This document shows, piece by piece, positions 24,001 through 30,000 of a DNA stretch of 64,000 bases. The position numbers were made by a program. The DNA comes from Escherichia coli (GTDB taxonomy: Bacteria; Pseudomonadota; Gammaproteobacteria; Enterobacterales; Enterobacteriaceae): the NCBI RefSeq assembly GCF_030384885.1, contig NZ_CP128614.1; one strand, 5' to 3'. Numbering within the stretch: the stretch's first letter is position 1; the number at the start of each line of letters is the position of its first letter.

Positions 24001-27000
24001 GTTGCGCACGTATTCGGTGAACGCACTATGGCGACGCTGGGGCGTCTTATGAGCCTGCTGTCACCCTTTGACGTGGTGATATGGATGACGGATGGCTGGC
24101 CGCTGTATGAATCCCGCCTGAAGGGAAAGCTGCACGTAATCAGCAAGCGATATACGCAGCGAATTGAGCGGCATAACCTGAATCTGAGGCAGCACCTGGC
24201 ACGGCTGGGACGGAAGTCGCTGTCGTTCTCAAAATCGGTGGAGCTGCATGACAAAGTCATCGGGCATTATCTGAACATAAAACACTATCAATAAGTTGGA
24301 GTCATTACCGGAGAATTGTATCATTAACAGTCTAGTTCTAACGACTACCACTTTTAAGTATGTATTGAGCCAGTTTTATATTCAGGCACACCATATTGCA
24401 CTCTAGCTCTTTCATCATTCTTGAAGAACTCTTAATTAAGTATTCTTCAAGTGGGCCAGCATATGCCCCTGATGTCACGATCGTTAGTTGCGTAAGAGGA
24501 TGAGTCAAACTCTCAATGCCCTTCAGGATGTCATTCTGGACAGCAGCAATATAAACAGGCGAAGCCGCAATCAAATATTCATCATTCGGGCTGGACTGCA
24601 TTAACTGGCTTATAGTTGCGCAACGGTTATGCTTACCTAGTGATTTTGTGATGGCTTTCCACCAGAGATCATGCCTGAATGGTACTTGATGAAATGTCGC
24701 CTCGTAAGAGGGCACCCGATCTCGACTATTTAAAAACCCCATCCCGGCAGAGATTATCCACAACTCCAGATTTCTGGTTGAGTTTAAAATTTCCTTTGCC
24801 GTAGACCAGTGATTACCTGAATACAAGGACAATGCCGGTACCGCCTGATTACTTCTGGCGTCGTCTACAATGTTACTCCAGGCATATGCTGCGTCGTCCG
24901 GGGTTTGTTTTGGATCTATGTCCAATGTCGGCCAGACGTGGCCCTGATGATTCTTGCCCTTTGTACAGGAAGTGATTAAGTGTACTGAGCGTTCAGAGAA
25001 CATTATCTTCCTTACATACCCATAGAACAGCTTTCTAAGAACGGTGGGCTCGCCTGAAAATTACAAATCAGCCCCTTTCACGGCATCATTTTGATTCTTC
25101 GCGTCTGCCCCCAGTAAGATGACCGGTTTTCTGCATGACAGTGTTATTCCTAACAAACGCAACACAAAACCACGCCAGCCAGAGCAAATTTTTTCATTTG
25201 CTGCGTAAAGCCTATTGTTTTCTCTTTTAAGCTTCGCCCACTCGTTACAGAGGGTAACATCATCAAGCGCTGTTATATGCTTCGCCTCACCTTCGACGAT
25301 AACGGTATGGATACCGTATGCTGTAAATCTCATACTATTTTCCAGAACCCAGTTGCGGTATTCGTCGAGTCCACCTTCGGAACCGGTAGCTCTGCGCCAC
25401 ATTTCAATTTGCTTGTGTGATGGGTCAAGTGTACTTGTCATTGAAGCCTCGTCTCAGCGATAACGCTTGAAATAGCCCGCTTTGGTCATCATGAAATTAG
25501 CCATCTGACTGGCGATTTGATTGTATCTTACTCATAGTGCCCTACCTATAGGTTAAAAAGGGGCATTTTCGCTTTATAGCGTGTTCAGCAGCATCAATCC
25601 TCCCAAGAAAGGCTGGCTTATTAAGCCGGTCCATCATTTTCTGTATATCTCTCATCAATTTTTATATCCGCCCTGGAGTGCACCGTTCAAGCACACCGAT
25701 TAGGCAGATAGTCACTAGTTAACTCTTTACTAGTGACTAAATTCCATTGATATACGTGACAACGTCACGTCATGAAAGCTTATAAATGCCTATTTTTCAT
25801 ACAATGGGATTTAATTAGGAGTAAATCCCATAGGCTTACATAAGGATGACAATTAAAAGCGTTAAATATCAACCAGATAGAATGATTACCCCCAATTAAT
25901 GGGCTCATCACATTATTTCACTGGCTGGGGTTATTGCTGGCATATCTGAAAGTGCTAATATGTTAGTCATTAGTAATTAGTAAAGCCTTTACTAAACGCG
26001 TTTCTACGTAAATTCTATAGGTTTTATAGTGTCCTACCTTTGCTCAAATCAAAATGTTCTGACATACCAAAATGGAGTGTAAAATGACTCAAAACCAGGG
26101 TTCTGAGCCAGTACCGGCGAGCCGGACAGGGCAGCTCATCAGCGCCCGGGATATGGCCATGCAGAAATTCGAAGAAGGGATGCGGTTAATCTCGGAAGCG
26201 TCGGAACTGTGCGGTCTCTCTCTCTTCACCAGCAGAATTATGCAGCCCAACGCATTTGGTCTTCCGTCGTCACTGGATCGCACCATCGAGGAGGGGCGTA
26301 AGGAAATTGACCGTAAAACGTGGAAAAGGCTCTTTGAAGAAACAGGTATGGACCGGTACTGGAACCATAAGCAAAAAGAAGCCTTTAACGAATCCCTTCG
26401 TACGGATCCGCCCGTCGCTTCCCTGGAGATTGTTAAGGGAACATTACAGCATGCACTGGCTAACAGACGAGACACCCTTGCAGAAGGTTTCGTTGATGTT
26501 CTCAACAAGCTTGACCGAAGTTTCAAAAGCAATGCCAGGCAATATACAATGCCAAAAAAGCTTGTTCTTCGGGGGATTTTTCCTGGTGTGAACGTGCTGA
26601 GGTACAACGGTTTCTCGCAGGACAATCACTTTTGTTTACGCGACTTTGAGAATATTGTATGCATCTGTTCTGATACTCCAACACCTGCAACCGGCGGTGG
26701 GCTGAGTATGGTCGACAGGCTGACGGCCATGAGAAATACAGAATTCACAGGCGAGGTCAGTGATGAGAATGGCTGGCGGTGTCGCCTGTTTGAGAATGGA
26801 AACGTTCATATTTGCATCGACAGTATCTCGCTTCTGAATGCTCTGAACGATCTTATCAGCATATATTTTGCAAACCAGCTTCCGGCCGCAGGAAAAAAAT
26901 GATGATTGAAAATGATAAAGAAAAAAGCCTGAACGATGCTACCCCGCCAGAGGTGCAGAATGACATCCGCAGCGAATCCACTGAAAAATCAAAGGAAATG

Positions 27001-30000
27001 GGTCGTTCAAGGTACTCATCTATCGCGATGATCGATTACTTCAATGCAATCGAACGTCTGTGCAAAGAGAAAGAAATTAACCCGGAAAATATCGATCTGA
27101 GCTTCAAAGTTCACTGGCTCAGAAACGCTGTTGGCGGCTCGTTTGCAAGGTCACAGGAGATGTTCGCGGAGTACCAGAAGTATGTTAAAGAGGTTCCTGA
27201 AGAGGCCCGTTACCTGGATATACCCGATGAGGTAAAGGTTGCACTCGGCGATATTATCTCGTACATCACCTGGCACTACCGTAGAAGCTATACCGCAATA
27301 CAGAATGATAGTGTTAAAAAAGCTGAAGCACGTAGCATGCAGCTGGAGGAGGAGGTAACGCAGCTGTTACAGCGGCTTGAGCAAAGCGCTACCGATATGG
27401 ATGAGCTGAAACTTGAGAATCAGGCACTACAGGGTCGATTAGAGATCCGGGACAGTACCGTCAAGGAGTTAGAAACAAGGCTGAATGTTGCCGAAGCAGA
27501 ACTCGAAACCTGCCATCACCAGTTAGATAGCACACGGCATGAATTGAGCCTCGCACAGCAGTCAAATGACTCACTCTCCCAGCAACTGGCTGAACGTAAA
27601 ACAGAGATCGCTGGTCACCTTGAATATCAAAAAAAGCTGAACGAAGAGATCAACACGCAGCGTTCTGATAACGCCGGTCTTTCCAGACAATGCGACCAGT
27701 TAAGTCAGACTGTGTCAGATACAAAGGCAGAGAGGGACAGGTTTGAACAGGAATTGATTGCTGCACAGAACCTTTGTACTGAGCTGAAAAGTGCACTGTC
27801 CGGGAAAGAGGGTGACCTGGTGGCGGTGAATGCCGAGCTTACTGAACTCCATAAACTAAACGAGTCGCTGAGCGCCGACCTGAATAAAGTAACTTTGGTC
27901 AGCCAGGGCTATGAAGCGGAAGTGGCTGAACAAAGCAATGAACTCAAAACGCTCCAGGCCAAAGTAATGAAGCTGGAAGCTACCCTGGAGGCGGAGAAAA
28001 CAATCTCAGAATCCCTAAAAGGCACCATTGATACATTAACTGGTGCAATGGCAGGGGGAGGTACTGGAAAGTCAAAACAGCCGCGTAGCAGAAAAACATC
28101 ATGATAAATGAAGCCAGGTTGATACACTTCTCTGCATCCCCTGGCACATAAGAACTTCTGCGGACATTCAGCCCGTCCGCAGGAGTTTTCGTCCTTCAGT
28201 CAACAAATGCACTACCTTTTTTGAGTCTCCACTTTCCAGAGCAGAAAACACGTTACCGATTCTACCAACAGCTTGTATCTGAGTGATAACCCCAGTCTTG
28301 TAATCATCTAGGATCCCTGACAGGAAAGCGTTCAGTTTTGTCTGTTCGCTTAGCGAAAGCATGTAGGACATTTTTTCTCCATTTTAAGCAGGTGTGTCAG
28401 TTGAAAGAGGTTTGCGTGATTCTGGAAAATGAGGCAGCACCATAGTTTCAGATGCTGTGGTCGCATCCCAGTGCCACCATCCATAAGGCCCATATTCACG
28501 GTTGTAATAATCTTTTTTGAGTTGCTTTCGGGCCAGATAAGCAGGAGTGGCCATACCAAATACTTCCATCGGGAACGGCTTATCGCTTTTTGTGTCGAGC
28601 AGGTAGAAGTCAGGGAACACCTCACTAATACTCGCATCATAACGCATGGGCTTAACGTACTGCCGGTGCTCTGCATCCAGCTTTTCTGCAACAACCGCCT
28701 CATAGGAGGAGTCCAGAGGTATCCAGTTCTCGCTAACGTGCATCAGCACAATTTGATGAGCTCTTACAGAAGGGCCTCTGCCGGTTACCGCAGCTGGTGA
28801 CGTCAACGCAAAGACAACTATTTTCGCCCCGGATTTCCATGCTGCGTACTCCGATGAAAATCGTTTCTTTACGCTATCCCAATGGACTTCTGAATTGAAA
28901 AAAATCAGCGGTAGCCCCCCAAAATTCCGCAGGGGTAAAAATTTAAGTGGCTTCTCATGCTTTTCAGCATCGTAGCGAGGTAAAACTGACAGGAGCATGA
29001 GACGTTTATCACTCATCGCCTGTGATGAAAGACGCTGAATTTGCGACTGAGCGACAGGTTGTTTCGGGTCAGGTACACCAATGAATAAATGGTCACCTAT
29101 GCAGGCTCTGCCGGTACGAATTTGTTTAGCGGTTTCAAGCAGACGATACCGTACCAGTGAATCGTTACGTTTCCCTGCCATTTTCGGGTACCAGACATTC
29201 AGACCAGACTCTGTCCACAAAAGACTAAGCAAGCCCAGGAGGGTCATTGAGGCCTGACCTCCTTCTGGTCGCTGAACATGGGGCAGGGGAGGCACTTCTG
29301 ATTTTTCAGGAGGATCTTTCTCTGTCATACCGATACCGAGCCTTACAGCCATATCACCTTCGGTTGTAATCCGGACCACACCACTCGCATATCCTTTCAG
29401 GCCGGTATGCCGGGCATCAAGGGAGAAGAATACACAGGAAGGATCATGCTCAATGCCCGTGTTAGCGGCTTTGACGAGAATAAAGGCATCACCGTTCGGT
29501 AAAGCACGAACATAAAGTCGCTTTTCTCCTTTTCCACGACATCCGCAGGTGATGACTGATTTTTGACCTGAGGTGTGGTGTGCCTTTTTAAGAGCCGACT
29601 GCCACCCTTTAGCAAACTCATCCTGCGTTTGAAAGTCAGGTGAATACCTTTTGACGTTTGGATCGTCGTCGTAAGCAATCATCACTGCGAATTTTTGGCT
29701 CATAGTAGTCTCCTAAACAGGAAGTTTAATATCCCAACCAGAGCAACACTTCCTGAGCGTCATACTGTTCCTTTACGCCCATGTCGCTAAAGAATTCTTC
29801 GAAATCTGTTTCGGGAACGCAATGCCTGGACAGTTCTTGTAATGCTCGTTCTTTAGATACCGTCTCACCTTCAGCTGATTCGAAATACGTCATGGTTGAC
29901 CTCTGACATTATTACAACAATCTTAAGCATTTAAATTGATGAAGGAGCTCAGGTCAGCTGACTTCGTCGTAAAACTGCCGCAAGCGCTGGGAGGCTGCAA

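Follow-up and report, generated by a model that had tools for sequence, protein, structure and literature searches.

A translationally coupled DUF4942 and coiled-coil gene pair of the IncHI plasmid backbone: a candidate KfrA-like maintenance module

What is the function of two overlapping plasmid genes, one encoding a member of the domain family DUF4942 and the other a long coiled-coil protein? The question is raised by a 64,000-nt stretch of Escherichia coli DNA (contig NZ_CP128614.1, RefSeq assembly GCF_030384885.1), hereafter the window, in which the two genes (gene 1 and gene 2) occupy positions 26084-28104. An earlier note, made from the sequence alone, saw in the pair a credible candidate for an undescribed system acting in defence, partition or exclusion. 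Among these options the evidence favours partition or maintenance and leaves defence unsupported: we read the operon, with about even confidence, as a KfrA-like maintenance module that regulates its own expression and has an IncHI-specific partner in DUF4942. It does not represent a categorically new system and fits best among the KfrA-type maintenance modules, its partner domain being the unusual element; the supposed novelty gives way to the KfrA-type architecture and weak colinear head similarity of gene 2 and to the membership of gene 1 in DUF4942. Among the plasmids that spread multidrug resistance in Salmonella, E. coli and Enterobacter, the IncHI1 and IncHI2 types are prominent, and the operon is present in well over a thousand sequenced plasmids under a misleading annotation, corrected here, or a hypothetical one.

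The operon and its distribution

The two genes and the structure that follows them are:

26084..26902, plus strand: gene 1, standalone DUF4942 protein of 272 amino acids (aa), identical to RefSeq WP_000193209.1
26899..28104, plus strand: gene 2, coiled-coil protein of 401 aa, KfrA-type by predicted architecture (RefSeq WP_001572381.1)
28158..28182, no strand assigned: GC-rich hairpin between the operon end and a convergent 67-aa open reading frame (ORF), with a 9-pair stem of which 6 pairs are G-C

Gene 1 starts with ATG at 26084, with the Shine-Dalgarno sequence GGAG (26074-26077) 6 nt 5' of it, and ends in TGA at 26900-26902; gene 2 starts with ATG at 26899, with its own Shine-Dalgarno sequence AGGA (26890-26893) 5 nt 5' of the start codon, and its stop lies at 28102-28104. 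The tetranucleotide ATGA at 26899-26902, read directly from the sequence, thus comprises both the stop of gene 1 and the start of gene 2. The two ORFs, their boundaries and their overlap are as the earlier note described them, and RefSeq holds the same proteins. Close spacing is kept in two diverged loci, L002 and L003, where gene 2 starts 3 nt past the gene 1 stop. The hairpin downstream is likely a bidirectional terminator. The two genes form a genuine bicistronic backbone operon of IncHI plasmids.

The window locus is part of an IncHI2 backbone; the plasmid backbone proposed at the outset is confirmed, and typed, by matches in PLSDB. The 3-kb operon region is matched in 1176 PLSDB plasmids, mostly conjugative, over at least 80% of the query in 564 of them and at 99% identity or above in 826; the records examined are IncHI2 plasmids of 150-280 kb from Escherichia, Salmonella and Enterobacter, and matched IncHI2 plasmids carry genes such as blaCTX-M-14 and mph(A). 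A tblastn search of PLSDB with the N-terminal head of gene 2 adds 283 records at about 55% identity, those examined being IncHI1-type, e.g., pHCM1 of S. Typhi. The pair stays together at DUF4942 identities of 54-64% (L002 and L003), at which the identity of gene 2 is 41% and 28%; by this measure, gene 2 is the faster-evolving partner. Throughout the IncHI-type elements, gene 1 and gene 2 are invariably neighbours with tight coupling.

Gene 2 and the KfrA family

An alignment of nine gene 2 homologues, down to 28% identity, resolves four parts: a variable N-terminal extension, a conserved segment at aa 37-135, a fast-evolving Leu/Glu/Gln-rich rod and a basic Gly/Lys tail. The last three map to the window as follows:

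27007..27303, plus strand: gene 2 head (aa 37-135), the most conserved part in the 9 homologues, globular and helical, with a putative helix-turn-helix (HTH); VHWLRNAVGGSFARSQEMFAEYQ
27304..28044, plus strand: gene 2 coiled-coil rod (aa 136-382), about 247 residues in a single predicted helix
28045..28101, plus strand: gene 2 Gly/Lys-rich basic C-terminal tail (aa 383-401), containing AGGGTGKS

In the AlphaFold2 (AF2) model, helices at residues 41-57, 65-77 and 82-98 are followed by a single helix spanning residues 110-382, and the block-mean predicted local distance difference test (pLDDT) score of the rod is about 90 or more over residues 141-310. The heptad (3.5-residue) core-hydrophobic power of aa 136-382 is 4.97, a value reached by none of 2000 shuffles (0.19 +/- 0.18), and the segment contains no proline. 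The coiled coil, which the earlier note had also recognized, is real.

Database searches with this protein return little beyond the rod. The head matches no Pfam family; NCBIfam, PADLOC and the other family scans detect no ATPase family in gene 2, and searches of the PDB with its sequence or profile give nothing meaningful. Matches to SMC, Rad50, LmuB, JetC, lamin, crescentin and tape measure proteins all fall in the rod, stay far under the family cut-offs and are compositional. Public records nevertheless call the protein 'ATP/GTP-binding protein', 'hypothetical' or, occasionally, 'SbcCD ATPase subunit'. The probable source of the first name is the string AGGGTGKS (aa 385-392; 28051-28074), which fits the PROSITE P-loop pattern [AG]x4GK[ST]. 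The tail is basic in all homologues, none of which has the P-loop string, and the pLDDT of residues 386-401 is below 50; since the string is unconserved and lies in a low-confidence tail, we do not regard it as a Walker A site, and the annotation it probably gave rise to is, to judge from the alignment, very likely spurious. The statement of the earlier note that neither protein carries Walker, nuclease or methyltransferase motifs thus holds for genuine motifs, while overlooking this one.

The KfrA family is classified by predicted secondary structure, not by sequence (PMC7783346). KfrA combines an N-terminal HTH, which recognizes an operator overlapping its own promoter, with tail-mediated oligomerization, binds the helical KfrC protein and plays a role in plasmid stability (PMC7783346; PMC7821693). 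Gene 2 displays the architecture by which the family is defined, namely a short helical head, a long coiled-coil tail and no ATPase domain; the KfrA proteins of IncP-1 (RK2, R751), IncU (RA3), IncW and PromA plasmids have the same succession of helical head, long coiled coil and short basic C-terminus. Like kfrA, gene 2 is located on a plasmid backbone behind repeated or palindromic motifs and is co-expressed with a second largely helical protein. On the strength of its modelled structure, gene 2 is KfrA-type by architecture.

Homology of the heads is harder to establish. Compared with R751 KfrA alone, the gene 2 head gives no significant score, with a GGSF motif aligned. In hhalign against a set of 13 diverse KfrA N-termini taken from PLSDB, the head profile scores 25.0 (P 1.3e-3) over 67 colinear columns, or over 99 columns including the invariant Trp under permissive settings. 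None of 300 column-shuffled KfrA profiles reaches 25.0 (mean 10.9, standard deviation 2.1, maximum 18.9); the score is 11.6 with the reversed profile and 12-17 with real profiles of unrelated families. The aligned elements comprise the first helix, an NP turn, R..hG.GSF, the next helix ending in W/Y, a Pro-rich linker and the start of the rod with its invariant Trp, the last of these motifs being P..h...L......W, and the aligned head columns cover the region of the HTH mapped in RA3 KfrA. Sequences intermediate between the gene 2 head and KfrA were found neither by tblastn in PLSDB nor in a profile search of 5.8 billion proteins; both searches return IncHI-type relatives and fragments only. 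The gene 2 head is probably, though not provably, homologous to the DNA-binding head of KfrA, and gene 2 is probably a very diverged KfrA-type DNA-binding coiled-coil protein. Among the known plasmid maintenance proteins that the earlier note thought profile searches might reveal, the searches thus partly identify gene 2, as KfrA-like, and do not identify gene 1 at all.

The two proteins also differ. The gene 2 head has an insertion of about 7 residues before the region of the recognition helix and is preceded by a disordered N-terminal extension of 36 residues; neither is a feature of KfrA. The partner of gene 2 is a DUF4942 protein, not KfrB or KfrC, and the gene 2 type is confined to IncHI-type elements, unlike KfrA. 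KfrA is encoded next to the korA-incC-korB (ParA/ParB) operon, whereas the neighbours of gene 2 are DUF6884/DpdC-like, DUF1173, Dcm, thermonuclease (SNase) and H-NS genes. Canonical kfrA genes elsewhere likewise occur near thermonuclease and Dcm genes: in the unrelated plasmids L028 (Oligella plasmid NZ_CP065724.1) and L023 (P. aeruginosa pQZPH41-KPC), kfrA has either a thermonuclease gene beside it, overlapping by 4 nt, or a gene for a DNA cytosine methyltransferase ahead of it. Finally, the candidate operators described below are inverted repeats, whereas those of RA3 are 9-bp direct repeats.

The DUF4942 partner and the upstream palindromes

Gene 1 matches Pfam PF13708 (DUF4942) over residues 73-261 (E 3.3e-26, 92.6 bits; model positions 2-187 of 190) and the unnamed PHROG 38825 (E 3.8e-100), its sole match in the NCBIfam, PADLOC and PHROGs scans. 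The four invariant residues of the domain, W80, D187, H242 and N255, are all kept. The AF2 model is confident (pLDDT 89, predicted template modelling score 0.82); it has no relative among solved structures, and sequence or profile searches of the PDB are equally uninformative, while Foldseek against AFDB50 retrieves DUF4942 proteins with a probability of 1.00. By these matches, gene 1 is a full-length standalone member of a family already known, though uncharacterized: our literature searches returned no paper that assigns DUF4942 a function or an anti-defence role.

The wider family offers a hint. An exhaustive HMMER search for DUF4942 yields 583 cluster representatives, and 46 of the best 150 (about a third) are proteins of 447-602 aa with an N-terminal DUF4942, which we read as methyltransferase fusions. 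When 20 of these 46 long proteins are aligned with two shorter outliers, an additional C-terminal class I methyltransferase domain emerges, with EPSAGxG as motif I and NPPF as motif IV; 15 of these 22 sequences have a Pfam MTS match. Among solved structures, the domain is closest to M.TaqI, an N6-adenine DNA methyltransferase (E 1.8e-10), and next to Erm/KsgA and type I M subunits. Both motifs are confined to DUF4942 relatives of 450-520 aa. By contrast, gene 1 lacks the C-terminal M.TaqI-like domain: it matches no methyltransferase family, and the protein ends after DUF4942, at 272 aa. Because DUF4942 forms, in other mobile elements, the N-terminal and non-catalytic part of an N6-adenine methyltransferase family, its role is probably to recognize nucleic acids or substrates. 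On a metagenome contig (L012, positions 363-7745), one such fusion is encoded in the same direction as genes for an MT-A70 methylase, for DUF5131 and for a C5 DNA methylase, a cluster that looks like a multi-methylase island of a mobile element.

The operon is preceded by a long AT-rich region, which the earlier note had rightly called repeat-rich and which contains four palindromes:

25442..26083, plus strand: AT-rich divergent intergenic region of 642 bp, the presumed promoter/operator region
25709..25739, no strand assigned: distal palindrome TAGTCACTAGT-N9-ACTAGTGACTA, a candidate operator; arms at 25709-25722 and 25726-25739, 93% complementary
25754..25770, no strand assigned: palindrome ACGTGAC-AAC-GTCACGT, a candidate operator with the core GTGAC-N3-GTCAC
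25804..25831, no strand assigned: palindrome ATGGGATTTA-N8-TAAATCCCAT, a candidate operator; 10-nt arms 100% complementary
25963..25995, no strand assigned: proximal palindrome TTAGTCATTAGTAATTAGTAAAG-C-CTTTACTAA, a candidate operator about 90 nt upstream of the gene 1 ATG

The GC content of this region is 37.5-41%, vs. about 48% in genes. A scan for the sigma-70 consensus detects no strong promoter in 25442-26083, so the promoter position is presumed; an Rfam scan of the window detects no RNA family and hence no known riboswitch or small RNA in the long leader. The motif TAGTNANTAGTAAAG has six matches in the 64 kb vs. 0.62 expected, and the best four are in the intergenic region. GTGAC-N(1-5)-GTCAC occurs once in the window; ATGGGATTTA-N8-TAAATCCCAT is also unique there, with 0.01 occurrences expected, and the proximal palindrome includes a perfect 9-nt inverted repeat (25977-25985 and 25987-25995). 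Since all four palindromes are found only in the intergenic region within the window, they resemble local operators rather than sites of a plasmid-wide regulon.

Three of the four have conserved counterparts in IncHI1-type loci, where they form conserved islands in an otherwise diverged alignment. A sequence related to the distal palindrome is present at the same relative place in L002 and pHCM1; GTGACA-N2-GTCAC aligns at the position of the GTGAC palindrome in both; the arms of the 25804-25831 palindrome are invariant in both; and the proximal palindrome is kept as TAGTCACTAGTAAAGGCTTTACTAGTG in L002 and pHCM1. In L003, the most distant locus, the GTGAC palindrome survives and the others are replaced by different palindromes, with a perfect 13-nt palindrome in the part corresponding to 25804-25831. 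The sequence GGTGACACTGTCAC is found upstream in L002 and L003, though the divergent neighbour gene differs: a 126-aa ORF in the window, DUF6884 in IncHI1 and an FRG-domain gene in L003. With the divergent neighbours differing, the motifs travel with the DUF4942 operon. The 126-aa ORF could alternatively bind the palindromes of the intergenic region that it shares with gene 1.

A maintenance module and its alternatives

We propose that the gene 2 head, through its putative HTH, is a sequence-specific DNA binder whose most probable targets are one or more of the conserved upstream palindromes, and that this binding would autoregulate the operon. The parallel coiled coil of about 250 residues would dimerize gene 2 and assemble into higher-order rods, the surface of which could serve as a docking platform for partner proteins. 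Gene 1, made in a fixed ratio via translational coupling, may be carried on the rod as KfrC is carried by KfrA, taking the place that KfrC/KfrB have in IncP and IncU plasmids; a stoichiometric two-protein complex is plausible. By analogy to KfrA of IncP and IncU, the module would be an accessory to stable maintenance and positioning of a large low-copy plasmid. We infer DNA binding, autoregulation, a two-protein complex and a maintenance role, and the resulting hypothesis of a backbone function is testable at the level of binding to the operon's own operators, autoregulation and stable maintenance. A KfrA-like gene 2 would extend a poorly understood class of plasmid 'cytoskeletal' proteins from the broad-host-range IncP, IncU, IncW and PromA plasmids to the large thermosensitive IncHI plasmids. 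The same reading would provide a first functional handle on DUF4942, a widespread domain of mobile elements that is recurrently fused to, or encoded beside, DNA methyltransferases.

Several observations weigh against this interpretation. The hhalign probability of the head-only alignment is just 18%; the full-length alignment of gene 2 to KfrA profiles, which extends from the head onward, reaches 96.9% (E 1.6e-10), a figure inflated by coiled-coil composition. None of the 9 heads matches Pfam KfrA_N (PF11740) in hmmscan, even with lenient thresholds of E <= 10 (window protein) and E <= 0.1 (its homologues), and the AF2 model of the head is of low confidence, with block-mean pLDDT of about 40-65 over residues 41-130. 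The DUF4942 profile shows no similarity to R751 KfrC or KfrB, with hhalign probabilities of 0.1%, and the idea that gene 1 is a homologue of either was rejected. Gene 2 is second in its operon, whereas kfrA is first in the IncP kfrA-kfrB-kfrC operon. Two records, covering up to some 20 kb upstream of the operon and some 12 kb downstream, carry no annotated ParA or ParB gene, and literature searches found no experimental data on the IncHI operon and no paper that ties KfrA to IncHI plasmids.

The status of the pair as a unit is also at issue. The DUF4942 genes found outside the IncHI-type clade, at 24-33% identity, lack a coiled-coil partner; their companions are DUF1173, SNase, PsiA and H-NS genes on Klebsiella megaplasmids and Dam-like, MT-A70 or C5 methylase genes on phage-like contigs. 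Among the DUF4942 contexts examined, only the clade of gene 1 is coupled to a coiled-coil partner. In pHCM1 (L010, NZ_CP029947.1; 5024-5890), the DUF4942 frame is split into ORFs of 169 and 116 aa that are missing from the gene table, and the downstream coiled-coil gene remains whole (406 aa); this lineage seems able to do without DUF4942. Given the partnerless DUF4942 genes elsewhere and the split in pHCM1, the two proteins are not obligatorily interdependent, which counts against the proposed module as well, and the coupling of gene 1 to gene 2 is, as far as the compared loci tell, a lineage-specific association and not a family rule.

The companions of DUF4942 suggest an alternative, the main rival though in our view unlikely, in which the operon is an establishment or anti-restriction module. 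DUF4942 would act on incoming or resident DNA, for instance by masking or recognizing sites or by influencing the activity of a methyltransferase, the Dcm encoded nearby being one example, with gene 2 as a scaffold or regulator, and the operon would belong to an island of DNA-modification and anti-defence genes rather than to partition machinery. The NPPF amino-methyltransferase domain fused to 46 of the best 150 representatives, the recurrent proximity of DUF4942, standalone or fused, to orphan methylases in phage-like and plasmid contexts (Dam-like D12 in L011, MT-A70 and C5 in L012, C5 in L036) and the presence of DUF1173, Dcm and thermonuclease genes near the IncHI operon, echoed by DUF1173, SNase, PLD-like and PsiA genes beside Klebsiella DUF4942, all point in this direction. 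Yet the window protein itself has no methyltransferase domain and matches no PADLOC family, the literature searched ascribes no anti-defence function to DUF4942, and the neighbourhood link is guilt by association; nor would this reading explain why gene 2 has a KfrA-like head and rod. A reading that merges the two strikes us as less probable still: in a hitherto unrecognized type of plasmid module, a KfrA-like filament at the plasmid's own palindromes would recruit DUF4942, elsewhere the targeting module of an N6-adenine methyltransferase family, and the pair would read or protect the way plasmid DNA is modified while the plasmid establishes itself or segregates. If true, this would link plasmid positioning to DNA modification or anti-restriction in the clinically dominant IncHI plasmids. 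Improbable, in our view, is a role in nucleoid organization, with gene 2 and DUF4942 assisting a plasmid H-NS paralogue (Sfh-like) in organizing or silencing AT-rich plasmid DNA, not in partition: an H-NS family gene is indeed found nearby upstream in IncHI2 (2-3 kb) and IncHI1 and at distant DUF4942 loci, and the regulatory region is AT-rich, but this is proximity alone, and neither protein resembles the H-NS or Hha family.

The defence option of the earlier note fares worst. Weak PADLOC matches to LmuB (E 2.4e-7) and JetC, together with NCBIfam SMC matches, might raise the suspicion of an SMC-like system directed against phages or plasmids, of the Lamassu or Wadjet type, or of an entry exclusion function; these matches, however, are confined to the coiled coil (residues 88-384) and fall far short of the cut-offs (for SMC, 43.9 vs. 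567 bits). Gene 2 shares a long heptad coiled coil with SMC, Rad50/SbcC, LmuB and JetC, which accounts for both the weak database matches and the name 'SbcCD ATPase subunit'; unlike the SMC family, it lacks an ABC ATPase head, a hinge and the antiparallel fold-back, and it is at most a third as long. Nuclease domains, partner defence genes, signal peptides and membrane segments are likewise absent from the operon, and the P-loop string is unconserved and confined to the disordered tail. We therefore reject the defence/SMC reading, since gene 2 is without ATPase heads and its matches are coiled-coil noise, and hold entry exclusion to be just as implausible.

Beyond the operon, the following features adjoin it in the window:

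23791-24294: IS1 InsB-like ORF
24338-25003, minus strand: 221-aa ORF matching the PADLOC DpdC profile (E 4e-59, profile positions 3-233 of 319)
25061-25441, minus strand: 126-aa ORF, divergent from gene 1, hypothetical in RefSeq
28168-28371, minus strand: 67-aa ORF, convergent with gene 2, hypothetical in RefSeq
28384-31423 and downstream, minus strand: DUF1173 gene region, a recurring neighbourhood with DUF4942

The backbone upstream comprises ter genes, HipA, HNH proteins, a helicase and an H-NS paralogue, and the downstream backbone DUF1173, a Dcm-type methylase and a thermonuclease (SNase); in IncHI loci, the operon is always at most 3-4 kb away from the last three genes. This downstream trio, in which the Dcm-type C5 methylase has a DNA_meth_N domain, recurs beside DUF4942 across IncHI2, IncHI1-like and Klebsiella megaplasmid loci (the window, L002, L003 and L005-L007); the megaplasmid loci combine DUF1173, SNase, PsiA and a PLD-like gene with DUF4942, with no Dcm seen. 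DUF1173 itself has a single weak PADLOC match, to PDC-S68 (E 8e-5), and literature searches found no functional study of it. The 126-aa ORF has no PADLOC or PHROGs match. The DpdC-like 221-aa ORF, whose IncHI1-type counterpart is assigned to Pfam DUF6884, is an orphan, with no further genes of 7-deazaguanine DNA modification (Dpd) among its annotated neighbours, and is adjoined by the IS1 InsB-like ORF.

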